UHGV virus genome: UHGV-0096231
Reading direction: 5' to 3' (one strand)
Source: a virus
DNA length: 40,810 nt
Part shown: positions 1 to 38,155 of the stretch, piece by piece
Numbering within the stretch: position 1 is the stretch's first letter
Layout: each line of letters begins with the position of its first letter
Position numbers and translations under genes: made by a program
Notes under the pieces: model-generated
What the model saw: only the letters and a program-made list of their open reading frames with translations
Database searches by the model: none
What the model was told of the DNA's origin: nothing

Positions 1-49
1 ACGGCGCTTAGTGCTGAATTCACTATCGGCGAAGGTGAGTTGATGGCTC

Positions 50-658
50 ATGATGTCCCTCTGGGATGCGCTCCGGATGAATATGATGATCTCATATCAG
101 GAACTTGTTCGCACCTTCCCTAATGAACTGGCAGGGAGAAACGAATTAAGGACAGATGGCAAGTTATACGGGAATATACTTGATCTAGATTTATCAAGTG
201 AAATTAGAGCGTTATTTGTGGCAAGCCTAACGTTTTATGGTAAAGCTTTCTCTGAAGCTAAAGGGAGAAAGTTAAAGATGGAGCGTGATTGGCTTGATTC
301 TGAATATTTTGGGTTGCATGACTGTATTATTAACTACAGGCATAATTTTGCAGCACATAGCGGCAACCAAGACTATGAGTCAGCAGAAACTTCATTGTTA
401 CTAATAAGGAAAAATGGGAAAACATTTTATCAAGCAGTGACAGATAGAAAACAACTGAGCATGATTGGTGTCGAGGACGAGCATGTTGATATGATTAATT
501 TATTTGAACATGCGATACAGGTTGTTGAGAAAAAATATAATGAAACATTAGAGAGAATTAGAACCTATGTCATGCAAAAGAGTTATTCTTTTTGGTGTTT
601 AGCTGCCACAGGGAAAGATCCCGTCAATTTAGATAAGTTAAATAAGAAGAAAAAATAA
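50..658 (+). CDS. hypothetical protein; AT-rich moron upstream of the packaging module, possible HEPN-like abortive-infection-type protein
   Basis: 202-aa ORF, much more AT-rich than the flanking phage genes. Contains an R-x5-H motif (NYRHNFAAHS) compatible with the HEPN Rx4-6H signature. Followed by a hairpin plus T-run terminator. No homology search was possible. Confidence 0.5.
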   Translation: MMSLWDALRMNMMISYQELVRTFPNELAGRNELRTDGKLYGNILDLDLSSEIRALFVASLTFYGKAFSEAKGRKLKMERDWLDSEYFGLHDCIINYRHNFAAHSGNQDYESAETSLLLIRKNGKTFYQAVTDRKQLSMIGVEDEHVDMINLFEHAIQVVEKKYNETLERIRTYVMQKSYSFWCLAATGKDPVNLDKLNKKKK

Positions 659-684
659 ACCTACTCTTCACATTAGTAGATGCT

Positions 685-716
685 AAGCCACTAGCAATCG
701 ATGGTGGCTTTTTTAT
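685..716 (+). terminator. Rho-independent terminator after ORF 50..658
   Basis: Stem agccac/gtggct with a 12-nt loop, followed by a TTTTTT run, directly after the stop codon of the upstream ORF. Confidence 0.5.
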
Positions 717-728
717 TGGAGCTTACCA

Positions 729-1079
729 ATGCCACCACGAACCCCAAAAGCCTGCCGTGTTCGCGGCTGCCGCTCTACAACCACAGACCCGTCAGGCTAC
801 TGCGAAAGCCACAAAAGCGAAGGCTGGAAGCAATACAAGCCAGGTCAGTCCCGTCATCAGCGCGGTTATGGTTCGAAGTGGGACGCTATCCGCGCGCGTG
901 TGCTGAAGCGTGACAAAGGTTTATGTCAGTTATGTCTGCGTGCCGGTGTGGTGCGTGAGGCGAAAACCGTTGACCACATCATCCCTAAAGCGCATGGCGG
1001 CACTGATGCCGACTGTAATCTGCAGAGTCTGTGTTGGCCGTGTCATAAGGCGAAGACGGCCCGTGAACGGTTAAAGTGA
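729..1079 (+). CDS. HNH endonuclease (terminase-associated)
   Basis: 116 aa with paired Cys motifs (CRVRGC, CESH, CQLC, CWPCH) and a DHIIP...HGG...N core typical of phage HNH proteins. Sits immediately upstream of terS/terL as in HK97-type cos phages. Confidence 0.85.
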   Translation: MPPRTPKACRVRGCRSTTTDPSGYCESHKSEGWKQYKPGQSRHQRGYGSKWDAIRARVLKRDKGLCQLCLRAGVVREAKTVDHIIPKAHGGTDADCNLQSLCWPCHKAKTARERLK

Positions 1080-1099: not shown

Positions 1100-1165
1100 A
1101 GGGGAGGGGCGGGTCACATCCCTGTGACCTGACGTCTTCCGGACTGCCCGCCCCATCGTTTTTTT
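1100..1165. other. candidate cos / packaging-site region (G-rich inverted repeat)
   Basis: The HNH-terS intergenic region contains ggggcggg ... cccgcccc inverted repeats around an inner gtcaca..tgtgac palindrome, followed by a T-run. Position matches where cos lies in HK97-like genomes. Inference only. Confidence 0.3.
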
Positions 1166-1204
1166 ATACCCGCGAAAAATGAAATTTAACCAGGAGTGCC
1201 GCAT

Positions 1205-1699
1205 ATGGCTGGAACGGCGGGGCGTTCCGGGCGTCGCCCCAAGCCAACGGCGCGCAAGGCGCTGGCCGGAAACCCCGGCAAGCGAGCCCTGAACAAAGAT
1301 GAACCTGTTTTTACGCCCATCAAAGGTGTTGAGCCACCAGAGTGGTTCGCTGAAGAAGATCTCCCTCTCGCCACGATCATGTGGCAACTGACAACCAAAG
1401 AACTCTGCGGTCAGGGCCTGCTGTGCGTGACTGACCTGGCGGTACTTGAGCGGTGGTGCGTGGCCTATGAGTTCTGGCGACGTGCCGTGAAAAATATTGC
1501 CATACAGGGCAACACTATCACCGGTGCAATGGGCGGCAGGGTCAAAAATCCGGAGCTGACCGCCAAAAAAGAACAGGAGTCCGAGATGAGCAGCACGGGG
1601 GCAATGCTCGGACTCGACCCCAGCAGCCGCCAGCGTCTGATTGGCCTGGCGGGGCAGAAGAAAGCCACTAACCCGTTTCTGAAAATTATCGAATCATGA
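1205..1699 (+). CDS. terminase small subunit (P27-like)
   Basis: Basic Gly/Arg-rich N-terminus ([23 protein letters not shown]) and overall pattern typical of the P27 terS family. Start chosen at the ATG at 1205 with AGGAG 9 nt upstream, rather than the GTG at 1196 in the ORF track. Stop overlaps the terL start. Confidence 0.8.
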
Positions 1700-3429
1700 G
1701 CCGGAAATCTTACCCCAACGTAAATGCTGCCAATCAGTATGCCCGGGATGTCGTGCGCGGAAAGATTGTTGCCTGCCAGTTTGTGATTCAGGCCTGCCAG
1801 CGCCATCTTGATGACCTGATGGCGGAAAAAAGTAAGTCGTTTCGTTACCGCTTCGACAAGGACCTGGCTGAACGGGCCGCGAAATTTATTCAGCTGTTGC
1901 CGCACACCAAGGGGGAGTGGGCATTCAAACGGATGCCCATCACGCTGGAGTCGTGGCAGCTATTTGTGATCTGCTGTGCGTTTGGCTGGGTCAATAAAGG
2001 CACCCGGTTGCGCCGCTTCCGGGAGGTGTACACCGAAATCCCCCGTAAGAACGGCAAATCAGCAATCTCTGCCGGTGTTGCCCTGTATTGTTTTGCCTGT
2101 GATAACGAGTTTGGCGCGGAAGTGTATTCCGGTGCCACGACAGAGAAACAGGCGTGGGAAGTCTTTCGCCCGGCGCGACTGATGTGTAAACGCACACCCA
2201 TGCTGACAGAAGCGTTCGGGATTGAGGTTAACGCCTCAAACATGAACCGTCCGGAGGATGGCGCGCGGTTTGAACCGCTGATCGGCAACCCAGGTGATGG
2301 TTCATCACCCCACTGTGCCGTGGTTGATGAATATCACGAGCATGCCACCGATGCGCTTTATACCACAATGCTTACCGGGATGGGGGCGCGACGTCAGCCA
2401 CTGATGTGGGCCATCACCACCGCCGGGTACAACATTGAGGGGCCGTGCTACGACAAACGGCGGGAAGTCATCGAGATGCTCAACGGCTCGGTGCCTAACG
2501 ATGAACTGTTCGGGATCATCTATACCGTTGATGAAGGTGACGACTGGACCGACCCGCAGGTGCTGGAAAAAGCCAATCCAAATATTGGCGTGTCGGTTTA
2601 TCGCGAATTTTTGTTAAGTCAGCAGCAGCGTGCGAAAAATAACGCCCGTCTGGCAAACGTCTTTAAAACAAAACACCTCAATATCTGGGTGTCGGCGCGT
2701 TCGGCGTATTTCAACCTGGTGAGCTGGCAGAGCTGCGAGGATAAATCACTGACTCTTGAGCAGTTCGAGGGGCAGCCGTGCATTCTGGCCTTTGACCTGG
2801 CGCGTAAGCTGGATATGAACAGCATGGCGCGACTTTATACCCGCGAGATTGACGGTAAAACGCATTACTACAGTGTGGCTCCGCGCTTCTGGGTACCGTA
2901 TGACACGGTGTACAGCGTCGAGAAAAATGAAGATCGACGGACAGCCGAACGCTTTCAGAAATGGGTGAAAATGGGCGTTCTGACCGTTACCGATGGTGCG
3001 GAGGTGGATTATCGCTACATCCTCGAGGAGGCCAAAGCGGCGAACAAAATCAGCCCGGTCAGTGAGTCACCCATCGACCCCTTCGGGGCGACCGGGCTGT
3101 CGCATGACCTTGCTGATGAAGACCTGAACCCCATCACCATCATTCAGAACTACACCAACATGTCCGATCCGATGAAAGAACTGGAAGCGGCGATTGAATC
3201 GGGGCGCTTTCATCATGACGGCAATCCCATCATGACCTGGTGTATCGGCAACGTGGTCGGCAAAACCATTCCGGGTAACGATGATGTGGTGAAGCCCGTC
3301 AAAGAGCAGGCGGAAAACAAAATCGATGGTGCAGTTGCGCTGATTATGGCGGTTGGCAGAGCCATGCTGTACGAGAAAGAAGACACGTTGTCTGACCACA
3401 TTGAGTCCTATGGGATCCGCTCGCTTTAA
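1696..3429 (+). CDS. terminase large subunit
   Basis: 577-aa ORF directly after terS with ATGA overlap. Has the ATPase N-domain and nuclease C-domain layout; size and position are typical of HK97-type terL. Confidence 0.9.
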
Positions 3430-20639: not shown

Positions 20640-21509
<870 letters not shown>

Positions 21510-21583
21510 CTAAGCCTTTGAATTTACATAGTACAAAAAAGATACTTTTCCTCATAATGTGAGCTAATTTTATGTTTCGTTTG

Positions 21584-21627
21584 ATGATTGGACCGGTCTC
21601 GAAAACCGTAGGCACGTAGTATGCGTT
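21584..21627. repeat. hairpin repeat, copy B (partial)
   Basis: atgattgg ... gaaaaccgtaggcacgtagtatgc. Shares the atgattgg leader with copy C and the core with copies A and C. Lies in the divergent intergenic region between the GIY-YIG gene and the methyltransferase gene. Confidence 0.5.
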
Positions 21628-21774
21628 AATTTATGAACAAACTACTTGTCTGCTGTTTTTCTGTCATTAGTCGTATATAGAATGATTCTCTATGCCTAAC
21701 AAAGCATCACCAGTGCTAGATTACGTTGCAGTCACTGTTTAAATATCCAGATAAAACATTTCCTTCTGGGTTGA

Positions 21775-23250
21775 ATGAGTGATAAAGTTTCACCCATTAG
21801 ACCCCTTGGAGGAATTATGTCTGAATTTGAAGTGTTGGCACAGCATCTGCTGAAGGAAGCCGAGGCGGAAGAAAAGCTGCGACAGGAAAATGATAAAAAG
21901 CTTATCGAGAAAGTGCTGGAAATCTATGATCAGAAGTATGTGGCTGAATTACTGAGAAAAGTCGGAAGAAATGAGTGGAGCCGTGAAACCATTAACCGCT
22001 GGATTAATGGCAAGTGTTTACCAAAATCGTTGACTTCAGTAGAAGAGTCTCTTCTGCGTAAGATGCTACCAGAACCACCTGCAAACCATCCGGAATATGC
22101 TTTCCGCTTCATTGACTTATTTGCTGGAATTGGAGGGATACGGAAAGGTTTTGAGGCCATTGGAGGCCAGTGTGTTTTTACCAGTGAATGGAATAAAGAT
22201 GCTGTGCGTACATACAAGGCCAACTGGTTTAACGATGAACAGGTGCATAAATTCAATCTCGATATTCGGGAAGTCACGCTGAGTGATAAAACCGATATAT
22301 TGGAAACGGATGCTTATGCATATATTGATGAGCATGTGCCGGATCATGATGTGCTTCTTGCGGGGTTCCCGTGCCAGCCATTTAGCCTTGCTGGTGTTAG
22401 TAAGAAAAACTCACTTGGTCGTGCGCATGGTTTTGAATGTGAAGCACAAGGAACACTTTTTTTTGACGTGGCACGTATTATACGAGCAAAAAAACCGGCA
22501 ATTTTTGTGCTGGAAAATGTCAAAAATCTGAAGAGCCATGATAAGGGTAAAACTTTCAAAGTCATTATGGAGACCCTTGACGAGCTGGGCTACGAAGTTG
22601 CCGATGCTGCAGAAATGGGAAAAAACGATCCAAAGATTATCGATGGGAAGCATTTTTTGCCTCAGCATCGTGAACGCATTGTTCTGGTCGGATTTAGACG
22701 AGATCTGAATATTCACAAGGGGTTTACCTTGCGTGATATCAGTCGTTTTTATCCGGAACACCGCCCATCATTTGGTGAATTGCTGGAGCCTGTAGTCGAC
22801 AGTAAATATATACTTACGCCAAAACTATGGGAGTACCTTTATAACTACGCCAAAAAGCATGCAGCCAAGGGGAATGGTTTTGGCTTTGGGTTGGTCAATC
22901 CTGAGAATAAGGAAAGCATTGCACGCACACTTTCTGCCAGATATCACAAAGACGGATCAGAAATTCTTATTGATCGTGGTTGGGATATGGCAACGGGAGA
23001 GGCTGACTTTATGAATGAGAGTAACCAGGCTCGTCGACCACGCAGGCTGACTCCCCGAGAGTGCGCACGCCTTATGGGGTTTGAAAAACCTGGAGGGAAA
23101 CCATTCCGTATTCCGGTTTCAGATACTCAGTCATATCGGCAGTTCGGTAACTCCGTTGTGGTGCCAGTATTTGAAGCCGTTGCCAGACTTCTGGAACCCT
23201 ATATCCTCAAAGCTGTTTCTGCTGATGCTGGTAAGACTGGGCAGCCTTGA
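21775..23250 (+). CDS. ecoRIIM: DNA cytosine-5 methyltransferase (Dcm / M.EcoRII-like)
   Basis: C5-methyltransferase motifs are present: FAGIGG (motif I), GFPCQPFS (motif IV, catalytic Cys) and ENV. Close overall resemblance to E. coli Dcm and M.EcoRII as recalled from memory. Convergent with an EcoRII-like endonuclease gene. Confidence 0.9.
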
Positions 23251-23284
23251 GAACACCTCCCGGCCTTTTAAGCCGGGAGTCAGC

Positions 23285-24499
23285 CTATGATAGTTCAGTG
23301 TAAAGTTCTATCAGCTCAGTAATGAATGCTCCGAGCGTTATTAATTCTTCTCTAACTGCTTCTGGGTATTTTTTATGTAAAGTTGATGGTACAACGAGTC
23401 TGACACCCGCATCTTTCATTTCTCGGTATTGTGCTGAAGAAACACCTTCTTGCAGCGTAAATAAATGTACCTGATGGATTTTATCTGCTTCATTCAGTAT
23501 CTGACGCCAGCGATCTTTGCAGGTGGTCTTTACTGCCAGCATACGTAAGTTTTCTACAGGAAATTCAGCGTTATGATATGCCTCTGCTGAAGGAAACAGG
23601 AAATCTGGTTTTTTATTACCTTCAGTAACTGCCTGAGTGGAGAAATGCCGTAGTCCGTGCTCGATAAAAAGCTTCTCTAGGTGAAGTTCAAGTGATTTAC
23701 CTGCCCTTGATTTACGTCGATTACTGACAGAGTTGGCTAATGCAATAAACTCATCTACAGAATCGAATCCTTTCTTAATAATATCAAGAACATGTAATTC
23801 CTCGACGAGTAGAAAAATATCATACTCGACACGCCGACGGTCAATCAGTTGCTCATCTGGATCCTTGGAGTTTTTAGCATAATGGCCAGCAGCATATTGA
23901 ATAATTTCGTTTCCAGAAGGAAAACGCTTCTTCCAGTCTTCAGGAATAACATATTTATGATTTACTGGAGTTTGCTGAAGAGACAATCCGCCCAAAATTT
24001 GTCCGGCTGGGCCGAAAATTAGGGTTCCAGGTATGATTTCGCCAATAGCAGACTCGATGAGATCCTCTTCATCGGGATTGACGCAGACCCATATATCTAC
24101 CTCGGAACAGTCAGTGTTCTGTTCGTTTAACCTGAAAGCAAGAATTGTGAGGGCTCCTGTATTTTCAGGGTTCTGTAATGGACTTCCTCTCCCCCAGCGC
24201 GTAATTCTTTTTTCGTTTCGGGTCTTACCAAAATAACGGTTGTTGTAATAAATTGCGCGTGCTTGGGTATCAGGGCAATCATGGGATGATACATGCGCAG
24301 TAAGGAAGACTGAAGGGTTCAGTTCGCGAGTATGATTGATAGATGGAAAAAGCTTTTCAACGATATTTGAGGGGATATAAAGTCCGACCTGATGGCCACC
24401 TGTTGCGCCTGTGTCGTTTGCAGAAAGGCGTTTGATGTAGATAAAGTAATTCCCGCTTGCGATATCAAGCAGCCAGTTATGAAAAACCGACATATACAT
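23285..24499 (-). CDS. ecoRIIR: type IIE restriction endonuclease (R.EcoRII-like)
   Basis: 404 aa. N-terminus MSVFHNWLL...YIKRLSANDTGATGGHQVGLYIP and the rest match R.EcoRII closely, from memory of that protein. Partnered with a Dcm-like methyltransferase. The true start may be the second Met. Confidence 0.85.
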   Translation of the reverse strand: MYMSVFHNWLLDIASGNYFIYIKRLSANDTGATGGHQVGLYIPSNIVEKLFPSINHTRELNPSVFLTAHVSSHDCPDTQARAIYYNNRYFGKTRNEKRITRWGRGSPLQNPENTGALTILAFRLNEQNTDCSEVDIWVCVNPDEEDLIESAIGEIIPGTLIFGPAGQILGGLSLQQTPVNHKYVIPEDWKKRFPSGNEIIQYAAGHYAKNSKDPDEQLIDRRRVEYDIFLLVEELHVLDIIKKGFDSVDEFIALANSVSNRRKSRAGKSLELHLEKLFIEHGLRHFSTQAVTEGNKKPDFLFPSAEAYHNAEFPVENLRMLAVKTTCKDRWRQILNEADKIHQVHLFTLQEGVSSAQYREMKDAGVRLVVPSTLHKKYPEAVREELITLGAFITELIELYTELS

Positions 24500-25257: not shown

Positions 25258-26238
25258 ATGAAATTTAAGGACAAGAACCTTAAGGCTCTCGCGGAATGTA
25301 TCATAGGAGATAATAAGGCATTTCTGTATCGTTCAAGCAGTCACATCACTGAATTTTTCCAGGACTGCGGCATGGATGTTACTCATGACGGATCCACTCG
25401 GTGGAAATGGACGGCCCAGAGGCTTGAAGAACTTCTTTATGAGCCACAGTCAAAGCCACATACTTTGCCGGAAAGGTTTGTTCATGTGCTCAGAACTTTA
25501 ATGTTAAAAGAAGATGCAATGGATGACGATCCAGGAAGATTAAAGGCGCTTGAAGAACTGAACAAGCCTTTGATGCGGGAAGGCTATGAGGCATTCTATG
25601 GTGACGATCGCCTTTTGTATATACGCCATACCGATACCAAAACGGTTTCAGTCAGTAATAACCCTCATCGGCCCTTAACGCCTCACGAAGTAGAATGCAG
25701 AAGGTTACTGACCGCGTTTCTTGATACCTGCTCAGAAGATGAGTTAATAGAAGATATTCTCCTTCCTTTATTCCGGCAACTTGGTTTTCACCGGATAACA
25801 GCAGTGGGACATAAAGATAAAGCGCTGGAATACGGGAAAGACATCTGGATGAAGTTCACACTGCCAACTCAGCATGTTCTTTATTTCGGCATTCAGGCAA
25901 AAAAAGGTAAGTTGGATGCGTCCGGTGCCAGCAAATCTACGAATTCAAACGTGGCAGAAATCTTCAACCAGGTACTGATGATGCTTGGCCATGAAATATT
26001 TGACCCAGAAACAAATAGAAAGGTGCTGGTAGATCATGCCTTTATCGTTGCTGGCGGAGAAATTACTAAACAGGCGAGGAACTGGCTGGGCGGGAAACTT
26101 GATGCCAGCAAAAGAAGCCAGATAATATTTATGGACCGGGAAGACATTCTTAATTTATATACTGTAAGTAATGTACCTCTGCCAACAGGTGCTCTCATCT
26201 CTGATGATGCCGTTAAGAACGATGATATTCCTTTCTAA
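25258..26238 (+). CDS. hypothetical protein with PD-(D/E)xK-like nuclease motif (candidate defence gene)
   Basis: 326 aa, AT-rich, GGAG RBS. The segment ELIEDILLPLFRQLGFHRITAVGHKDKALEYGKDIWMKF...HVLYFGIQAKKGK fits an E...D...(Q)xK restriction-endonuclease-fold pattern. Function not established. Confidence 0.5.
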   Translation: MKFKDKNLKALAECIIGDNKAFLYRSSSHITEFFQDCGMDVTHDGSTRWKWTAQRLEELLYEPQSKPHTLPERFVHVLRTLMLKEDAMDDDPGRLKALEELNKPLMREGYEAFYGDDRLLYIRHTDTKTVSVSNNPHRPLTPHEVECRRLLTAFLDTCSEDELIEDILLPLFRQLGFHRITAVGHKDKALEYGKDIWMKFTLPTQHVLYFGIQAKKGKLDASGASKSTNSNVAEIFNQVLMMLGHEIFDPETNRKVLVDHAFIVAGGEITKQARNWLGGKLDASKRSQIIFMDREDILNLYTVSNVPLPTGALISDDAVKNDDIPF

Positions 26239-26944: not shown

Positions 26945-28159
26945 GTGAAACTCAATGCCCGTCAAATAGACACAGCCAAGCCAAAAGAGAAGGCTTACAA
27001 GCTGGCCGATGGTGGCGGTTTGTATCTCTTGGTAAAACCTAATGGAGGTAAATACTGGCGACTTAAATATCGTGTAGCTGGTAAAGAGAAGCTATTGGCA
27101 CTAGGTGTGTATCCTGAGGTTACTCTAGCCGATGCTCGGGCAAAACGTGAAGATGCGAAAAGAGGTATCGCTGGTGGTATCGATCCGATGGAAGCGAAAC
27201 GAGAGGAAAAGATTGCCCGGGAAACGCAGTTAAACAACACCTTCAAAGATATTGCCCTTGAGTGGCACAGCAGCAAATTAAAAAAATGGTCTGCTGGTTA
27301 TGCTTCAGACATCCTCGAAGCCTTCAACAAAGATGTGTTCCCTTACATTGGCAAAAAACCAATCGCCGAAATCAAACCACTTGAACTTCTGAATGTGCTG
27401 CGGCGCATCGAGGGGCGCGGTGCTACAGAAAAAGCCAAAAAAGTGAGGCAGCGGTGCGGGGAAGTTTTCCGCTATGCAATAGTCACTGGTCGCGCAGAGT
27501 ATAACCCTGCACCAGACCTTACTAGCGCGATGCAAGGCCATGAATCTAATCATTACCCTTTCCTTACAGCTAAAGAATTACCTGATTTTTTCAAGGCATT
27601 GTCCAGTTACTCAGGAAGCGCATTGGTTGTTATGGCGGCTCGTCTACTGATTATCACCGGCTTGCGGACTGGCGAACTACGTGGCGCATTATGGGATGAA
27701 ATTGATTTCAACAAGGCTATCTGGGAGATACCCGCTTCACGTATGAAAATGCGGCGGCCTCATATTGTGCCATTGTCTGATCAGGCTCTTTCGCTTATTG
27801 GGAAGATTAGAGAAATAACAGGCAATTACCCTCTTATGTTTCCCGGGCGCAATGATCCAAGGAAAACAATGAGTGAGGCCAGCATAAACCAAGTGTTTAA
27901 GCGCATTGGCTACGCTGGACGTGTAACTGGTCATGGGTTCCGGCACACTATGAGCACGATTTTGCATGAGCAGGGCTATAACACCGCGTGGATAGAAACG
28001 CAGCTCGCTCACGTTGATAAGAACTCAATTCGTGGCACATACAACCATGCGCAATATCTGGATGGAAGGCGGGAGATGCTTCAATGGTATGCCGACTATA
28101 TGGATTCTCTCGAGCATGGCGGAAATGTGGTGCATATGGTGTTTGAAAAACACGCATGA
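26945..28159 (+). CDS. tyrosine integrase (P4 family)
   Basis: 404 aa. N-terminus KLNARQIDTAKPKEKAYKLADGGGLYLLVKPNGGKYWRLKYR is the typical P4-type integrase arm-binding domain. C-terminal catalytic region with HGFRHT...Y. GTG start. Immediately downstream of the tRNA-derived att core. Confidence 0.9.
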   Translation: MKLNARQIDTAKPKEKAYKLADGGGLYLLVKPNGGKYWRLKYRVAGKEKLLALGVYPEVTLADARAKREDAKRGIAGGIDPMEAKREEKIARETQLNNTFKDIALEWHSSKLKKWSAGYASDILEAFNKDVFPYIGKKPIAEIKPLELLNVLRRIEGRGATEKAKKVRQRCGEVFRYAIVTGRAEYNPAPDLTSAMQGHESNHYPFLTAKELPDFFKALSSYSGSALVVMAARLLIITGLRTGELRGALWDEIDFNKAIWEIPASRMKMRRPHIVPLSDQALSLIGKIREITGNYPLMFPGRNDPRKTMSEASINQVFKRIGYAGRVTGHGFRHTMSTILHEQGYNTAWIETQLAHVDKNSIRGTYNHAQYLDGRREMLQWYADYMDSLEHGGNVVHMVFEKHA

Positions 28160-28429
28160 AACAACTGGACAAGTATACAGAGGTTTACTAAAGTATAGGG
28201 GAGTAGATTGATAAAAACTCACAGAGGATTGCTATTTAACAGTTAGCCCTGGAGAAGGGCAATCGCTCTTTTATAAACGAAGGTGTATTGAGCCTTCTAC
28301 GTCGCTGACAAAGCGGAATGTTCTTTAAAACTACTGGATGTCACGCCTAATAGCGTGATCCTGCCGAAATGCAGGGTAGCTCTACCCTTGTGGAGCAAAC
28401 AAACCAAAACAATCTGACTATCTTTTATA

Positions 28430-28464
28430 AAAGACCGCAATATGTTTTTCATATTGTGGTCTTT
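28430..28464. promoter_or_regulatory. 15-bp-stem hairpin / palindrome upstream of alpA
   Basis: aaagaccgcaatatg-ttttt-catattgtggtcttt, one mismatch in the stem. Candidate operator or terminator. Confidence 0.35.
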
Positions 28465-28550
28465 GGCGTATTCGACATTTGACGCAAATAAAACTCTCGC
28501 CATTCGTTGCAGGAGGGGGTTATTGCGTCATTAGTACAGGATATTAATAA

Positions 28551-28754
28551 ATGGCTAATTACAATTCATTAATTCGTCTCTCTGAAGTTCAAAGGCGAAC
28601 TGGTTATAGCAAAGCATGGATTTATCGTCTTATTAGTCAGGGGAGGTTCCCTAAACAGGTAAAAATTGGAAGTCGGGCAATTGCTTTTGTTGAGTCTGAA
28701 ATAGATGAATGGATTGAGAAGTGTATATTAGAATCTAGAGACGAGGTGGCCTGA
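28551..28754 (+). CDS. AlpA-family transcriptional regulator / excisionase
   Basis: 67 aa. LIRLSEVQRRTGYSKAWIYRLISQGRFPKQVKIGSRAIAFVESEIDEWI is the canonical AlpA helix-turn-helix pattern. Confidence 0.8.
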   Translation: MANYNSLIRLSEVQRRTGYSKAWIYRLISQGRFPKQVKIGSRAIAFVESEIDEWIEKCILESRDEVA

Positions 28755-29185
28755 TGGAAAAGAAAAACCGCCCATTACAGGCGGCTAATTCAGATATTCG
28801 TGTATCTGATGTTACGCCCCTTACAAAATCCCTTCAAGCACCAAAGCGCACACCGAAAAAGCATCGTGCCAGAGTCTATATGCTGCGTACTGGTATAGAG
28901 GGATGGACAGAAAATGACATTCTTCGCTACTGCCGTCTGTCTTCTGGTCGTAACTATGCAACAGAGTTAGAACGCCAGCTTGGAATCACTCTGGAGCGTA
29001 TCGACGAAAAGAATCCTGATGGTATCGGAACACACCTTCGCTACCGTTTCTCCTGCCGTGGTGATGTTCTGAAAGTGATCACTCATATTAACCATCTTGC
29101 GAACATAAATGATCACAACGGACTTTCTCAGCAGGAAATTGCCGACATTCTGAAACTCTACCCGGACGCGTTTAACGCCGCCTAA
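28754..29185 (+). CDS. hypothetical protein
   Basis: 143 aa, ATGA-coupled to alpA. Confidence 0.5.
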   Translation: MEKKNRPLQAANSDIRVSDVTPLTKSLQAPKRTPKKHRARVYMLRTGIEGWTENDILRYCRLSSGRNYATELERQLGITLERIDEKNPDGIGTHLRYRFSCRGDVLKVITHINHLANINDHNGLSQQEIADILKLYPDAFNAA

Positions 29186-29197
29186 CGGAGACTGAAA

Positions 29198-30031
29198 ATG
29201 AACATCGAAAAAAGCAGATTAATTTCTGAGGCTGCCCCTCATCTGAACGCCTCTCTGGGCACAATTAACGGTAATGAATTTGCCGCAATTGTCCCGGTTA
29301 TTCCTGGTCATATCGGTGGGCGTGAAACCAATATTGTTAGCGCAAAAGCGTTACACAAAGCGTTGGGCGTGGGAAAAGACTTCTCTACATGGATCACTGA
29401 TCGCATCTCTGAATATGACTTCACCATTGGGCACGATTACTCAGTCCATAAAACAATTTCCCCAAATTTGGGGAAAAGCCCGAATGGCGCGGCTTACAGC
29501 AAGATTAAGCAGTCTGGCAGACCCGGCAAAGACTATCTGTTAAGTGTCGGAATGGCGAAAGAACTGGCAATGATCGAACGCAATGATCAGGGTCGCGCTA
29601 TCCGTCGTTATTTCATCCAGTGCGAGGAAGAATTACAGCGTAGCGTGCCTGAAATCGCCGCCCGCTATCGTCGCCAGCTAAAAGCCCGTATTAGTGCCGC
29701 AAACAACTTTAAGCCAATGTGCGATGCGCTGAATATGGCCCGTGCCGAGCAGGGGAAAACGACGCAGCAACACCACTACACAAACGAGAGCAATATGATT
29801 TCTCGTATCGTTCTTGGTGGGCTAACTGCTAAGCAGTGGGCGCGGATAAATGGCTATTCTGGCGAACCTCGCGACCATATGAACGCAGAACAGCTTGAGC
29901 ACCTCTCATATCTCGAAAGCACCAATATCACGTTAATTGATATGGGCATGGAATATGAGCAGCGCAAAGGAGAACTCACCCGCCTGTCGCAACGCTGGCT
30001 CGCCAAGCGTCTGGAGGCGGTCCATGTTTAA
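29198..30031 (+). CDS. phage antirepressor-like protein (AntA / KilAC-type)
   Basis: 277 aa. The segment KDFSTWITDRI ... DYLLSVGMAKELAMIERNDQGRAIRRYFIQCEEEL resembles Ant-type antirepressor domains. Assignment from memory of the motif. Confidence 0.5.
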   Translation: MNIEKSRLISEAAPHLNASLGTINGNEFAAIVPVIPGHIGGRETNIVSAKALHKALGVGKDFSTWITDRISEYDFTIGHDYSVHKTISPNLGKSPNGAAYSKIKQSGRPGKDYLLSVGMAKELAMIERNDQGRAIRRYFIQCEEELQRSVPEIAARYRRQLKARISAANNFKPMCDALNMARAEQGKTTQQHHYTNESNMISRIVLGGLTAKQWARINGYSGEPRDHMNAEQLEHLSYLESTNITLIDMGMEYEQRKGELTRLSQRWLAKRLEAVHV

Positions 30032-30206
30032 GCCGACAGGAACACCACAACCTCAAAAACGCTACAAAGATGCCCACGGAGCACTCGTTACTGTCGAAAG
30101 CGTGTCTCACAACCGAGTGACGTTTTATCGCGACGGGTATCAATCGCCATGCGTACAACCGCTGGCACGTTTCATGAAGGAGTTCGCGGAGGTTAACAAA
30201 TGCTAA
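30027..30206 (+). CDS. small hypothetical protein
   Basis: 59 aa starting at an ATG that overlaps the ant stop (ATGTTTAA). Translational coupling suggests it is a real gene. Confidence 0.35.
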   Translation, partial: FKPTGTPQPQKRYKDAHGALVTVESVSHNRVTFYRDGYQSPCVQPLARFMKEFAEVNKC

Positions 30207-31267
30207 CCGCCCAGAAGAAGATATTTTCACTGGCTGGTATGTCGCCAAAATCCAGCAATATGACAGCAAAGTCAGACATTAATACAGCAGATACAAGCAA
30301 AGTTTATCATTTGCTGGTGGTCGGAACGGATGCCTTAACCATACCAGAAATCTCGGGCGATGATATTAGCATTGAGAAGGTCAGCGGCTGCGCCAGAAAA
30401 TTTCTGGTCGTAGATGATGTCTTCAGCTCGTGTAGTGACTCCACAAAAACATTCGTCCACGCGCGTGACGTTAACGAAATGAGCGCGATGTACTGTGCTT
30501 CTGGTTCTTCCAATAGTGAGTTTTCGGAGTCCATAAAAAAGAGCTTGCCGTTATGCGGCAACACGGTTTATGGTTATAAGGCACCTCATAAAACGGGTGC
30601 CGGGATTGGCGTCCTGGTAAATCGAATGGCGACATATGACGCGCCGAGCGTCTTTTTTTATGTCGTAGGTCTGACTCACCCATTTTTTGGGCGTTGGTGT
30701 ATAATCCAGCGCCTTTGTCAATCAATGGTGGCTCAGGCAGGGGCTTCTTCGGAAGCGCCGGTATCCATTCGAGCCGGTTACGCCAACCCTGTCTGGGCTA
30801 CCACCAGCGAAATTGGCGTTTCCGGTGGTAGCGTTACATGCTATCGAATGGAGGCTGCCACATGCTGGCTACTACCCCTACCCAAAAACCGCAATTTATC
30901 TGGATTATCGCCGCAGTTCGCCGCGATTGCCCGACAATTACCGCCAAAATTCATCATATTGCTGCCGAGTCTGAACGCGATGCTCGCCGTTCTCTGGTGC
31001 GCGATCACATCTGCTTTTTTGCTGGTCGTATCCGCATGGAGGTGGCACATGATTAAAACCTACGATGTGCATATGGATCCCCTCGAACGCACAAGCCAGA
31101 TCATCACACTGACAGAAGTGATTAACGATATTCTGGTGAGCAACTCTCCCTCACGAGACGAAAAACTGAAGGCGTTACTCGCGATATTGGACCTCGCCGT
31201 TCGTGACGTTCATTTCCTGCTGGAAGGTGGACAAATGCCATGCAAAACGGGGGCAACCAATGAATAA
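30200..31267 (+). CDS. hypothetical protein; ORF boundary anomalous (the in-frame read-through to 31267 is probably not one gene)
   Basis: The start is coupled to the upstream stop (ATGCTAA). The frame has no stop until 31267, yet the region 30862-31056 shows better codon usage in another frame. Possible frameshift or fusion. Confidence 0.3.
30862..31056 (+). CDS. small hypothetical protein
   Basis: 64 aa from the ATG at 30862 with GGAGG RBS. Codon usage (ctg, ccg, cgc, atc, acc) is more host-like than the overlapping frame. Confidence 0.45.
   Translation: MLATTPTQKPQFIWIIAAVRRDCPTITAKIHHIAAESERDARRSLVRDHICFFAGRIRMEVAHD
31049..31267 (+). CDS. small hypothetical protein
   Basis: 72 aa. ATG overlaps the previous stop (ATGATTAA). 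Confidence 0.4.
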   Translation: MIKTYDVHMDPLERTSQIITLTEVINDILVSNSPSRDEKLKALLAILDLAVRDVHFLLEGGQMPCKTGATNE

Positions 31268-31454
31268 CTCAATTAATACCCCTCGCCTTACGTCCGCACT
31301 TCAATTAATCGAGCAAGCAGCGGCTGTCCCGGTTGCTGTCAGTCTTTCGGCTGAAGAAATGGACGCTGCTGATGTCGTGGATGCGATTAAAGCGTGCTCA
31401 TCTTTGGTTAACGATGCCCGTGCCGAGCTGGTAATTCTTGGGGGTGAAAAATGA
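31260..31454 (+). CDS. small hypothetical protein
   Basis: 64 aa. ATG overlaps the previous stop (ATGAATAA). Confidence 0.4.
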   Translation: MNNSINTPRLTSALQLIEQAAAVPVAVSLSAEEMDAADVVDAIKACSSLVNDARAELVILGGEK

Positions 31455-31714
31455 ATATCACCTTAATTTATCGTCATCCGTGTGAGCTGGAAATTGAATC
31501 ATTGCTGGGGCGCGAAGAGCCATATCCAGACACATTCACTCCCGCAGATTGCGCGACTGAACGGCTTACCAGAGCGCGCACAGGTCTGGTTCATGTGATG
31601 AATGAGATTGTTCCCTCGGTGGGAGGGGAACAGGCGACAGTAATCAATAGCTGGCTACAAAAAGTTACCTCCCTGATAGATATCGGTTTAATCGATGTGG
31701 AGAGTGCGAAATGA
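31451..31714 (+). CDS. small hypothetical protein
   Basis: 87 aa, ATGA-coupled. Confidence 0.4.
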   Translation: MNITLIYRHPCELEIESLLGREEPYPDTFTPADCATERLTRARTGLVHVMNEIVPSVGGEQATVINSWLQKVTSLIDIGLIDVESAK

Positions 31715-31932
31715 CCAACATCCAGCTCATTGAAGCGCAATGTCGCATCGAACAGGTTCAGACTGTTTTAGGGTTCTGGCTTGAAGGGGCCAGCCCCTGC
31801 AACAGAGACAAGTTAATGATTGGCGCGGTTATGTCACTGCTCAATGGCGTACCAGAAGCTATTCAGGAAGCGGACGAATTGTTGGGCAAATATGAGTTAC
31901 AGAATCATTCAGGCGAGGCGAAACATGAATAA
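31711..31932 (+). CDS. small hypothetical protein
   Basis: 73 aa, ATGA-coupled. Confidence 0.4.
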   Translation: MTNIQLIEAQCRIEQVQTVLGFWLEGASPCNRDKLMIGAVMSLLNGVPEAIQEADELLGKYELQNHSGEAKHE

Positions 31933-32527
31933 TTTCTTAACTTTCCATGCAGAAGCAACGCCTGACGGCGTAAACATCATGTACCGCAGCAACGATGGCA
32001 TGACAGAACGCGTTGATACCGTCTCATATATTGATGCCGTAAATCGTCTGGATGCCGGGGATTATGACGATAAACCAGATGAAGGCATGTTTATACATCT
32101 CGCTATTGCCAGTGGCGGCAACCAGGGATATTTCGATTACACATCACAGCATCACGTGATTATGTGGCGCTGGCTGATAGCAACAGCATTCATCAATGAA
32201 ATGAGAAAGGAAAACGGCACCGTCAGCATTATTGATGACAGTGGCAATCATTCCGTGGTTTCTGTTTATTCCAATGGCATCGTCGCCATGCCGCTGTATC
32301 CAGTAGCAGAGCGCCTCGCTATGGCAAACAACATTGAGGGCGCAATGATCGAGAAATATGGTGTTGATGTCGGAACAAAGAATGCCATCATTTTTTACAG
32401 CAACATGTTCGATGTCGAACAGGGAACACTCACTTCGTTTGGGCGAGAAGTGCTTGCCGATCTTCACAACAGCTTTATTGCCGAACTAAACGAAAACGGC
32501 ATCCCAGAAGCACCAGTGACGCACTAA
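31925..32527 (+). CDS. hypothetical protein
   Basis: About 200 aa from the ATG at 31925, which overlaps the previous stop. Directly precedes the primase gene. Confidence 0.5.
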   Translation: MNNFLTFHAEATPDGVNIMYRSNDGMTERVDTVSYIDAVNRLDAGDYDDKPDEGMFIHLAIASGGNQGYFDYTSQHHVIMWRWLIATAFINEMRKENGTVSIIDDSGNHSVVSVYSNGIVAMPLYPVAERLAMANNIEGAMIEKYGVDVGTKNAIIFYSNMFDVEQGTLTSFGREVLADLHNSFIAELNENGIPEAPVTH

Positions 32528-32539
32528 ACGGGGGCCAGA

Positions 32540-34891
32540 ATGCGAAACATTGATCTTATCCGTCAGGTTATCAGTGCGTCTGAAAACAACTGGCCTCATG
32601 TGCTGGGCTGCCTGAACATAAATGTCCCTGACTCTCCGCGCCGTCATGCTCCCTGCCCTGCATGTGGGGGCAAAGATCGATTCCGGTTCGATGACAACGG
32701 GCGCGGTAGCTTCATCTGTAATCAGTGCGGCGCTGGTGATGGGCTGGATTTAATTAAACGCGTAAATAACTGCGACACAACAGAGGCGGCGCTTCTTGCC
32801 GCTGATGTTCTGGGTATTGATTACCGGACAACGGAAACACCAGAAGCCACCAGCCAGAAACGGGAACAACTGGAAACCGAGCGCCAGCGACGCGAACAGG
32901 AGCGCCTGAAAAGGGCAGAGAAGGACGAACAACAAAGACGGGATACGTTTTCCCGTCAGTTTGATGACATGCGCAGAAAGGCTGTAAACGGCAAATCTGA
33001 TTATCTGGTTGCGAAAGGGGTAGGTGATTTTACATTCCCCGTGTTGCCCGATGGATCTCTGTTGCTGGCGCTGGTGGATAAATCCGGCGCAGTCACAGCA
33101 GCACAGACTATTACCTCACATGGTGAAAAAAGACTCCTGACAGGTTCGGCAAAGCGGGGGGCATATCACGCCATAAACGCACAGAAACGACCTCACAGCA
33201 TCATAATTGCTGAGGGGGTGGCTACCGCCCTGTCGTGCCATTTAATTCGCCCTGACGCAATGACAGTGGCAGCAATCGACGCTGGCAACCTGTTGCCAGT
33301 AGCGGAAGTCATGCGCAGAACATATCCGCAGGCACAAATAATCATTGCCGCAGATAACGATCACCAGCAAGGAGACTCAGAAAGTGGAGGGATCAACACG
33401 GGGAAAGATGCCGCAGAGAGGGCCGCTATTTCCGTAGCTGGCAGGGTGTCTCTGCCACCGACTGACTATAAAGCCGACTGGAACGACTATCACCAACAAC
33501 ACGGGCTGGCGGCAGCCACAGCAGCATTTAAAGATTCGATGTACCAGCCACGGGGGAAAGGGGCGCAGGTGAAAAATCACAAACAGTCAGTCGGGGCGCT
33601 GAATGAGATCAGTTCTGGCGAGGTGTTAAGCGATGATGAAATTGCTGTCCTCGAAGAAATCAACCGGACGTTTACGCATGTCACCATCGGCGGGAAACAC
33701 AAGGTGGTGTCGCTAAAGCCTTCTCAAACCGGCGGTGTATCGCACGTTTTCGAGGATTTATCACAATTTCAGCATTATTTTCATCATAAACCGAGAGTCG
33801 CCAGAAAGCTGGCGGGATCGGCGTGGCTGTCATGGAGTGGGAAGAACTACAAGCCAGGAGGCGTAGGATTTTATCCAGTACCAGACAAATGCCCTGACGA
33901 TGTTTTTAATCTGTATGAGGGGCTGGCACTGGAACCAATTGAAGGAGATTGCACGGTATACCTTAATCACCTGTTGCAGGTTGTCTGTGCCGGTAATGAA
34001 GAGGCATACCAATATCTTATCCAGTGGATGGCGCACATTATCCAAAAGCCTGATGAAAAACCGTCCGTGGCAATCGTGATGAAATCTGTCCCGGGCACAG
34101 GGAAAGGCACAACGGTTAAACCGCTGCTGCAAATACTGGGGCAGTACGCCGCCCACATTAACGGGGCGGGACATATTTCAGGGCGCTTCAATTCAATACT
34201 TGCTAACAAGCTACTGGTATTTGCTGACGAAGTGACGATCCACAAGCCGTCTGAAGCTGACAGACTTAAAGCGATTATTAGCGAACCGACGTTTAACCTT
34301 GAGCGCAAGGGAATTGATGCTGAACCAATGCCGAATTTTGCCCGGTTGATATTTGCCAGTAACAGCACACAGGTATTACAGGCAGGGATAAGAGAGCGTC
34401 GCTATCTCGTGCTTGAGCCATCTCCTGAAAAAGCACAGAGCCGGGAGTATTTTGATCGGCTGTACAGTTGGCTTAATGATGGCGGTGCCGCAAAGTTGCT
34501 TTGGCATCTTAAAGGGGTGGATCTCTCAGGTTTTGACCCTCAACGAGCGCCACAGACCGATGCCTTACGTGAAGAAATCTTGCTGGGGCTGTCTGGCGTT
34601 GAATTGTTTCTTTATGGCGAGCTAATCAATGAACCTCCGTTTAATGGCGAAGTCCGTTTGTTTGCAAAGGATATGGTTAGTCGGTTTGTAGCGTGGTCGC
34701 TTGAGCGTGGGGAAAAGCTTAAAGAACCAGCTGCCAGATCACTACTGGGTAAATCACTTGCACAAATGGGGCTGGTGAAGCATGGAAGACCAGACCGAGG
34801 GAATGGCGTGTTCTACGAACTACCAGAGGTCGGAGTTCTACAGGCTGCGTTTGCCCGTCTGATCGGTATGGGGGGTTATGATGTTTTTTAA
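32540..34891 (+). CDS. P4 alpha-like primase-helicase (zinc-binding / toprim primase + D5-type helicase)
   Basis: 783 aa. N-terminal Cys cluster CPACGGKDRFRF...FICNQCGAGDG (zinc-binding primase domain), a toprim-like middle region (IIIAEGVATALS, AADND), and a C-terminal P-loop-like VPGTGKGTT. Confidence 0.85.
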   Translation: MRNIDLIRQVISASENNWPHVLGCLNINVPDSPRRHAPCPACGGKDRFRFDDNGRGSFICNQCGAGDGLDLIKRVNNCDTTEAALLAADVLGIDYRTTETPEATSQKREQLETERQRREQERLKRAEKDEQQRRDTFSRQFDDMRRKAVNGKSDYLVAKGVGDFTFPVLPDGSLLLALVDKSGAVTAAQTITSHGEKRLLTGSAKRGAYHAINAQKRPHSIIIAEGVATALSCHLIRPDAMTVAAIDAGNLLPVAEVMRRTYPQAQIIIAADNDHQQGDSESGGINTGKDAAERAAISVAGRVSLPPTDYKADWNDYHQQHGLAAATAAFKDSMYQPRGKGAQVKNHKQSVGALNEISSGEVLSDDEIAVLEEINRTFTHVTIGGKHKVVSLKPSQTGGVSHVFEDLSQFQHYFHHKPRVARKLAGSAWLSWSGKNYKPGGVGFYPVPDKCPDDVFNLYEGLALEPIEGDCTVYLNHLLQVVCAGNEEAYQYLIQWMAHIIQKPDEKPSVAIVMKSVPGTGKGTTVKPLLQILGQYAAHINGAGHISGRFNSILANKLLVFADEVTIHKPSEADRLKAIISEPTFNLERKGIDAEPMPNFARLIFASNSTQVLQAGIRERRYLVLEPSPEKAQSREYFDRLYSWLNDGGAAKLLWHLKGVDLSGFDPQRAPQTDALREEILLGLSGVELFLYGELINEPPFNGEVRLFAKDMVSRFVAWSLERGEKLKEPAARSLLGKSLAQMGLVKHGRPDRGNGVFYELPEVGVLQAAFARLIGMGGYDVF

Positions 34892-36793: not shown

Positions 36794-38155
36794 GTGGGTA
36801 AATCAATGGCTACGTGGAAACAGGGTATTAATTCTGGTGGTTTTCTGGCTGGCATTGGTGCGCAAAATGAGAATGCGCCAAAGGCAAGCGACATTAACGC
36901 AACGCTTGGTCTGATCCGCGAAAACAATGAACTGGCTCGATCAGGTGCAAATAACGTTGCTCTGACAGGCCTTCGTGGTCTGGCTGGAGTTGCTGACATT
37001 TATAAGCAGGAACAGCAACAGAAAGCGATTAGTGCGTTCAATAAGGTTCATGCTGATGCATGGGCTTCTGGTGATCCATCGGGACTATTTAAGTTTGCCC
37101 AGGAAAATCCAGCGTTTGTTGCACAGGCACAACAGGCATTTTCCGGTCTTAATGAGCAGCAACGCAACGATATGGGCGATTTAGCCATGAGGGCTAACGT
37201 CGCTCTTTCTCAGGGACCGGAAGCCTACAGTAAATTCATTACTGACAACAAGGACAGGTTAAATCGCGTTGGTGCTAATGCTGACTGGATGATTCAGACA
37301 GGTATCCAGAATCCAGAGCAGCTATCACACATGCTGACTACTATGTCTCTCGGTGCGCTTGGACCAGAAAAGGCGTTTGCTGTTCAGGATAAGATGGTTG
37401 GTCGCCAGCAGGAGCAGCAAAGAATTAACGAAACCATTCGCAATAATGACATGACGAATGCGAGGGCTATTAGGGGTCAGGATCTTTCCTATAAGGCTCA
37501 AATGGCAAGACTGAATCACGACAAGTATGTGTTTAAGCAGTCACAGGCGGCCCTTGAAAGAGCAGGACAACTTCAGGATATGGATGTTTTGTCTCTTAAC
37601 TCACAGATAGCAGCGACGGGAATTGATCCGCTAACCGGTAAAGCTGCAACGTCAGCCAGAATGTCTCAGGCTAAGAGATGGCTTGATGGCAACAATAATT
37701 ACAACAATGCGTTAATTACTGGTGAGCGAGGGATAGAGAAAATTGATTCTTTGCTTGGTAAGAAGGAGCTTGAAGGTATTGGTCGCTTCGAAGGAAGAAA
37801 TATAGATGGCTTCACAAGTGCTGAAGGGCTTGCAAACCGTAATGCGATAGAAGAATTAAAGTCGGGTGCGTTTGTCCAGAACGTGCAGACTATGCGAGGT
37901 ATGGGTAGCCTCTCCAATGCTGAAGGCCAAAAACTGGAAAACCTGATCGCGAAACTCGATATAACACAGCCTGAAGAGGTCGTCAGAAAACAGTTATCTG
38001 AAATCCGATCGCAATATTCTGTATTTCAAAAGGTTGCAGCAAGGGAGGCTGAATCAATGGGATATAGTTCATCAGGTTATGACACATATGTTAGTGAGCG
38101 AAAATCAGGAAGCGACAGCAATAAGTCCGGTTTCTCGTCTTTATGGGGTGATTAA
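36794..38155 (+). CDS. hypothetical protein (453 aa), Gln/Ala/Asn-rich, predicted coiled-coil
   Basis: Long ORF with no recognisable catalytic motif. The start may be the GTG at the track coordinate or the ATG four codons later. The stop overlaps the next start (TAATG). Confidence 0.6.

Follow-up and report, generated by a model that had tools for sequence, protein, structure and literature searches.

At the left edge of the stretch of DNA analysed here (40,810 nucleotides of the virus genome UHGV-0096231, hereafter the window), a markedly AT-rich open reading frame of 202 codons lies just upstream of the packaging genes. The first-pass annotation had described it as an intact moron with its own terminator, encoding a HEPN-like protein of the kind that acts in abortive infection. 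The locus raises two questions: whether the reading frame is a gene in its own right, and what kind of protein its undisturbed form would encode.

An IS5 end at the start of the reading frame

The window opens with the left end of an IS5 element, comprising the first 17 codons of ins5A/insH, the region upstream of that gene and the terminal inverted repeat (Table 1). The insH start codon, as annotated in RCS47, maps to window positions 51..49 on the minus strand, and the remainder of the element lies beyond the window's left edge. The terminal repeat, GGAAGGTGCGAACAAG, has a single match in the window and matched in 0 of 100 shuffled sequences. A megablast search with bases 1–1200 splits at this point: bases 1–122/123 match IS5 copies at 100% identity, and bases 120–1200 match 23 complete E. 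coli genomes at 96–100%, with the matches to these uninterrupted genomes starting exactly at base 120. No genome in the complete E. coli collection matched both parts of this query at one place. In a three-way alignment, the window follows IS5 to base 119, CTAA is present in both IS5 flank and gene, and the uninterrupted gene follows from there on.

It is IS5 that provides the ATG at position 50 called as the start of the frame, the stop codon upstream of it (41–43) and the first 23 codons. The frame is joined to that of the gene by chance, (120−50) mod 3 and (6001−5781) mod 3 both being equal to 1. The terminal repeats of IS5 are 16 bp long and imperfect, its target consensus is C(A/T)A(G/A), and it prefers AT-rich DNA (PMC11677980); preferences for AT-rich DNA and CTAA-like targets fit a landing in a cassette of 35% GC. 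In its exact IS5 end, its 16-bp repeat and the use of a CTAA target within AT-rich recipient DNA, the locus resembles IS5 insertional inactivation as described (PMC11677980) and has nothing unusual about it, differing in that a single junction is visible and the assembly stops inside the element. A second copy of CTAA would be expected where IS5 ends on its far side, a point that the window does not reach. With the window ending inside IS5, the single junction seen is compatible both with a simple insertion and with an IS5-associated deletion or rearrangement.

The exact chimeric protein is recorded on three contigs (exact-protein look-up). One of them, a 94-kb contig from a human-gut metagenome (ENA ERZ920059, k127_62660), shares 10,658 bases with the window without a difference and stops 2 bases to the left of the window's start, inside IS5; the window sequence probably derives from an assembly broken at the IS5 repeat. 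A sequence search of genome, viral and metagenome contig collections did not return the IS5/gene junction.

Table 1. Coordinates of features at the left end of the window
Feature	Position	Strand	Evidence or remarks
IS5 left end	1..119	−	Identity of 100% with IS5 copies such as insH/IS5D of phage RCS47
Chimeric ORF	50..658	+	23 codons from IS5, 1 at the junction and 178 from the truncated gene; 202 codons, ATG start (ORF call)
IS5 16-bp terminal inverted repeat	104..119	−	GGAAGGTGCGAACAAG on the minus strand
IS5 target site CTAA	120..123	.	Common to the IS5 flank and the uninterrupted gene
Remnant, codons 74–252 of a 252-aa prophage accessory gene, family phrog_8440	120..658	+	PHROGs, DNA identity
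RHNFAAH codons	338..358	+	ORF residues 97–103, equivalent to R147..H153 in the intact protein; predicted active-site motif of HEPN type
Terminator-like hairpin and T-run	685..718	+	AAGCCAC...GTGGCTT; closes the AT-rich cassette
HNH endonuclease gene	729..1079	+	Pfam HNH, E = 5.3e-15; conserved, bordering the variable slot on its right
Small and large terminase genes	1196–3429		Downstream of the HNH gene

The intact gene and its truncated copy

The intact allele is found in E. coli LD22-1, whose DNA matches window bases 120–1200 (1,081 bases) at 100% identity. There the gene is 759 nt long, encodes 252 aa (WP_001407090.1, 'hypothetical protein') and has an Rz-like lysis gene on one side and the HNH endonuclease gene on the other. 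Each of the 23 matching complete E. coli genomes carries one larger annotated gene, of 252 aa in LD22-1, the sole locus read. The true start lies 220 nt upstream of the junction in uninterrupted prophages, and no copy of the missing 5′ part was found anywhere in the window. At a CTAA site, IS5 has deprived a prophage accessory gene of codons 1–73.

The protein profile gives the same result. The reading frame matches phrog_8440 with E = 1.6e-81, its residues 25–192 aligning with profile positions 75–239 of 239, and because the profile is covered from position 75 only, the frame is recognized as a chimera independently of the IS5 match. What had been taken for a single intact gene of 202 codons is an IS5-derived start joined to the remainder of a gene whose real length is 252 codons.

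Lost with residues 1–73 are the native start, two N-terminal β-strands, the invariant or nearly invariant residues D63 and W70 and most of helix 1 (residues 49–80), of which the last seven residues are left in the remnant. As the native start and its ribosome-binding site, most of helix 1, D63 and W70 are all gone, the remnant is taken to be non-functional, and this copy is almost certainly a dead pseudogene. From the identity of the remaining 1,081 bases to the intact allele, we infer that the insertion is recent.

A variable slot between lysis and packaging genes

A moron, in the Hendrix-lab definition, is inserted between genes that are adjacent in relatives, has an odd composition and carries its own promoter and terminator. 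The slot occupied by the gene is variable: in SfV it is empty, with 26 bp from Rz1 to the HNH gene; in E. coli MLI107 it holds iss (bor-like); and in 23 of 5,426 complete E. coli genomes it holds the phrog_8440 gene. Matches to cassette-free relatives (ST64B, SfI, SfIV and E. coli prophages) restart at about position 703–706. The base composition is foreign, as first described, with a GC content of 0.353 over bases 120–658 against 0.567 in the HNH gene and 0.552 in the terminase genes; by segment, values run from 0.32 to 0.39 in the cassette, 0.47 to 0.54 in the lysis genes and 0.54 to 0.60 in the HNH and terminase genes.

Below the reading frame is the terminator-like hairpin (685–710), with a stem of 9 bp and a loop of 8 nt followed by TTTTTATT; the terminator call for it is a pattern match only, the surrounding 51 nt having a folding energy of −14.3 kcal/mol (z = −2.2 against shuffles). 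An identical hairpin is present downstream of the intact gene. A search of the 81 bp upstream of the intact gene yielded no sigma-70-like site; for the copy studied here, IS5 cuts that region off from the remnant and it falls beyond the window. The assignment as a prophage accessory gene of the moron type is partly supported: the variable slot between otherwise adjacent genes, the foreign composition and the terminator-like hairpin are all seen, but those 81 bp yielded no promoter. The gene shares with the lambda bor and iss morons a position after Rz/Rz1 and before the packaging genes, and presence in some relatives only. It differs from them in that bor and iss encode small outer-membrane lipoproteins on the opposite strand, whereas the phrog_8440 gene encodes a cytoplasmic-looking helical protein of 252 aa on the late-gene strand.

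The placement ahead of an HNH–terminase block is also as originally described, the HNH gene being followed by the small terminase gene, which is of the P27 type (Pfam Terminase_4, E = 3.9e-20), and by the large terminase gene (ORF 1696–3429), whose name is taken from the annotation of the intact locus. The ends of the published linear genomes of SfV, SfIV and SfI map to window positions 1137–1154, and that of ST64B near 1189. Within positions 1081–1160, at the presumed cos region, is a G+C-rich inverted repeat, gggcgggtcacatccctgtgacc...gcccgcccc. The cos site of this HK97-type packaging module is probably located between the HNH and small terminase genes.

Homologues sharing 61% and 55% identity occupy the same post-lysis slot in two other lambdoid lineages (three in all), with HNH/TerL as packaging neighbours in one and lambda-type Nu1/GpA in the other. 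Further afield, a distant homologue follows zot in a filamentous Vibrio phage, homologues lie beside an integrase in a Pseudomonas prophage and in coliphage 2H10, another is in the early region of a Pseudomonas prophage, and a Herminiimonas homologue is next to an apparent prophage tail region, which is another prophage end. No neighbour is conserved across the homologue loci examined, making this a solo gene.

CTX-type phages carry cargo genes after zot. In Vibrio phage 10N.286.54.E4_PE002 (Tubulavirales), the homologue after a zot-like gene (L011:4986–5723) bears the depositors' note 'endonuclease'. A related prophage (ENA ERZ15609681) with the 61%-identical homologue in its post-lysis slot also has the Kiwa defence genes KwaA and KwaB (L018:1759–3172), which run on the opposite strand and are flanked by the genes for the Q antiterminator and the holin; the Q–holin slot of LD22-1 (L001:2721–4133) holds two unannotated minus-strand genes.

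A large and unannotated protein family

An initial search returned 58 homologues from gamma- and betaproteobacteria, about 220–275 aa long bar three shorter entries. An exhaustive profile search of cluster representatives (50% identity) extended this to at least 956 clusters at E ≤ 0.001, 504 of them at E ≤ 1e-10, and among the matches listed nearly all members stand alone at about 220–260 aa. Members align from the N-terminus at full length. The carriers comprise lambdoid and SfV-like prophages, Pseudomonas prophages and filamentous Vibrio phages.

The family to which the intact gene belongs is large, unnamed and unannotated. No Pfam, NCBIfam or PADLOC model matches the reading frame or 51–66 diverse members, the one match being to phrog_8440 itself, of unknown function. 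Searches of PDB sequences gave no match beyond chance level, either with the protein (phmmer) or with two profiles (hmmsearch). When 5.8 billion proteins were searched with a profile, the 120 matches listed were all strong, unannotated family members, and among these 120 there was no distant relative with a Pfam HEPN label that would bridge to phrog_8440. Nothing was found in the literature under WP_001407090.1 or phrog_8440.

The dominant signature, Y-R-[H/N]-N-F-A-A-H-S-G, is kept in 51 of 51 close homologues. Among 66 diverse members, R147 is present in all and H153 in 65, and position 148 is H in 35, N in 25 and D in 6, with nothing else occurring there. Also present in 66/66 are Y113, R123 and H140; D63, W70 and K115 are nearly invariant.

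Predicted fold and the HEPN question

HEPN domains are defined as four-helix up-down bundles, commonly with an insert between helices 2 and 3, and with an Rx4-6H motif at the end of helix 3 in which a polar residue, mostly N, D or H, follows the arginine (Anantharaman et al. 2013, PMC3710099). Many HEPN families, although not all, have a second conserved acidic residue in helix 2, typically as Ex3[KR] (PMC3710099). HEPN RNases are metal-independent, depend on the R and H residues, and usually pair two motifs in a dimer.

Two proteins were modelled with AlphaFold2, that of E. coli (pLDDT 85.3, pTM 0.82) and a Pseudomonas homologue 30% identical to it (pLDDT 89.1, pTM 0.81). The models agree in their architecture, which is composed of two N-terminal β-strands, H1–H2–loop–H3, a long β-hairpin and H4. 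The helices of the E. coli model span residues 49–80, 96–116, 134–151 and 198–225, with a 17-residue insert between H2 and H3. In both models the Rx5H motif runs from the end of H3 into the following loop (R147..H153 against helix 134–151 in the first, R133..H139 against 120–137 in the second). The predicted structures display these features of the HEPN definition: a four-helix bundle, an H2/H3 insert, an Rx4-6H motif placed at the H3 end and a polar residue after the arginine.

The RHNFAAH motif on which the first-pass annotation relied is real and invariant in the family, but it is not significant in a single sequence, as Rx4-6H occurs in 60% of shuffles of this protein; it carries weight only because of its conservation across the family and its position. 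The acidic residue of helix 2 is not clearly conserved in phrog_8440: K/R103 is conserved in 53 of 66 members and the acidic positions 97 and 100 are partly conserved, with a spacing unlike Ex3[KR]. Y113, K115, R123 and H140, invariant in the family, are without counterpart in the HEPN definition.

The HEPN-like label accordingly stands on the predicted bundle and the motif at the end of H3, but sequence comparison linked the protein to no HEPN or Abi family: neither the protein nor 51–66 members matched any HEPN, Abi or defence family in Pfam (E ≤ 1), NCBIfam, PADLOC or PDB sequences. The best Foldseek match in the PDB had E = 0.13, and structural scores did not separate HEPN proteins from generic helical bundles. 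Set beside known HEPN proteins (the HepT-type toxins 7ae2, 5yep and 8xdj, YutE (1ylm) and an integron-cassette HEPN protein (3jrt)), the family differs: sequence and profile searches detected no similarity to the HEPN families in Pfam or the PDB, and the protein has in addition the N-terminal pair of β-strands and the long β-hairpin right after the motif. Unlike the HepT-type toxins, it has no adjacent MNT antitoxin or other conserved partner. On the strength of the models and the motif, we regard phrog_8440 as probably a family of HEPN-type nucleases, with a fair measure of reserve.

Other genes in the window

Just past the prophage tail genes is a restriction–modification module (20640–24499), in which an EcoRII-type restriction enzyme with EcoRII-N and EcoRII-C domains (23285–24499, minus strand) adjoins a C-5 cytosine methylase (21775–23250), and a reading frame with a LEM-3-like GIY-YIG nuclease domain occupies positions 20640–21464 on the minus strand. 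Between this module and a second integrase is a 326-aa reading frame (25258–26238) that no Pfam family matches at E ≤ 1e-5. A second copy of IS5 can be discounted here, because the window holds a single IS5 inverted repeat.

A second mobile element (26945–34891) encodes a tyrosine integrase (26945–28159), an AntA-type antirepressor (29198–30031), an Ash-family protein (30200–31267) and a primase-helicase with Zn-ribbon, Toprim and DUF5906 domains (32540–34891). Its layout resembles that of a P4-like satellite or integrative element. At positions 36794–40260 is a reading frame with a full-length match to Inj_translocase, the P22 injectosome DNA/protein translocase (E = 7.8e-109), followed by a 701-aa reading frame without a Pfam match, both outside an obvious P22-like prophage context.

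Alternative readings

That the 202-codon frame is an intact HEPN-like abortive-infection moron, expressed and active in the prophage, would account for the ATG-initiated frame, the Rx5H motif, the AT-rich composition and the terminator-like hairpin, all of which are present. The first 70 nt of the frame, however, are IS5; full-length members of about 220–275 aa align from the N-terminus, whereas here phrog_8440 is matched from position 75 only; and the absent residues 1–73 hold D63, W70 and most of helix 1. We rejected this reading on the IS5 junction and consider it extremely improbable. Little more probable, and still very unlikely, is that the truncated gene is expressed by ins5CB read-through from the ATG at 50, giving a residual, deregulated or dominant-negative product. 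An AAGGTGA sequence (32–38) precedes the IS5-borne ATG; ins5CB is transcribed opposite to ins5A (PMC11677980), which here means on the plus strand and towards the remnant; and the frame is open from 50 to 658, with helices 2–4 and the Rx5H motif kept. Against this, terminator-like sequences inside IS5 have been reported (as cited in PMC11677980), the loss of helix 1, D63 and W70 should block folding, and an in-frame join is expected by chance in one case in three. A chimeric transcript is conceivable, but a functional product from it is unlikely.

For the intact gene, one alternative is that it belongs to the lysis cassette, for example as a lysis regulator or spanin accessory. In enterobacterial prophages the gene does lie directly after an Rz-like gene on the same strand, in one lineage the lysis gene runs right up to its called start, and the 81 bp upstream of the intact gene yielded no promoter of its own. 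Yet SfV and other close relatives have complete lysis cassettes without it, another relative has iss in its place, its GC content is 20 points below that of the lysis genes, and homologues occur beside integrases and after zot in a filamentous phage, whose genome lacks lysis genes; co-occurrence with holin, endolysin and spanin genes is not constant, as the Vibrio filamentous phage, Pseudomonas and 2H10 loci show. This candidate was rejected on the homologues in phages without lysis genes, and we give it hardly any credence. A weightier alternative is that the protein is a four-helix bundle of another kind, which might serve as a regulator or exclusion factor, or as a module that senses or binds a ligand; its conserved RHNFAAHSG loop would bind a ligand or partner and the likeness to Rx4-6H would be convergent. 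We think this non-HEPN reading less likely than the HEPN assignment.

A proposed explanation

The explanation we favour is an IS5-interrupted accessory gene whose product would be a divergent HEPN-type protein acting in abortive infection or exclusion; taken as a whole, it seems to us somewhat better than an even proposition. IS5 has interrupted the gene at CTAA and severed codons 1–73, leaving a chimeric frame that starts in the element, and without most of helix 1 the four-helix bundle of the remnant would be unable to close. The intact protein, as modelled, would be a divergent HEPN domain whose third helix ends in the invariant R-[H/N/D]-x4-H, functioning as a metal-independent RNase. Unrelated temperate phages carry its gene on its own in their variable slots, and it would most likely be a prophage-encoded nuclease for abortive infection or exclusion; it is the genomic context that suggests a defence role.

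A precedent is HepS (STM14_3211), a solo HEPN abortive-infection protein of the Salmonella prophage Gifsy-1 with Rx4H at R100–H105 (PMC13043305). At rest HepS is tetrameric and inactive; tail-tip proteins of incoming siphoviruses activate it, and tRNA anticodon loops are cleaved (PMC13043305). Common to HepS and the intact gene are a HEPN-motif protein of at most 250 aa, made from one gene with no partner, and a lambdoid prophage whose accessory slot houses that gene. By analogy, the nuclease may stay latent until a phage cue, and the intact family could share the HepS mechanism of a latent oligomer, activation by a phage protein and tRNA anticodon cleavage. The broader proposal, that phrog_8440 is an unrecognised, widespread family of solo HEPN nucleases serving as a one-gene abortive-infection or exclusion system in very different temperate phages, is more tentative, and we hold it to be possible rather than probable. 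The claim for the fold is a modest one, as the predicted structures leave HEPN and a generic helical bundle unseparated.

The correct annotation for the '202-aa HEPN moron' is a pseudogene disrupted by IS5, in which the start codon comes from the element and does not mark a true N-terminus. The feature in this window is ordinary; the family behind the gene is plausibly a new solo HEPN-like family. After HepS, in which a lone prophage HEPN protein senses phage and aborts infection, such families are reasonable candidates for single-gene defence. If phrog_8440 is indeed a solo HEPN family, the recent knock-out by IS5 would represent a host or prophage shedding a costly nuclease.
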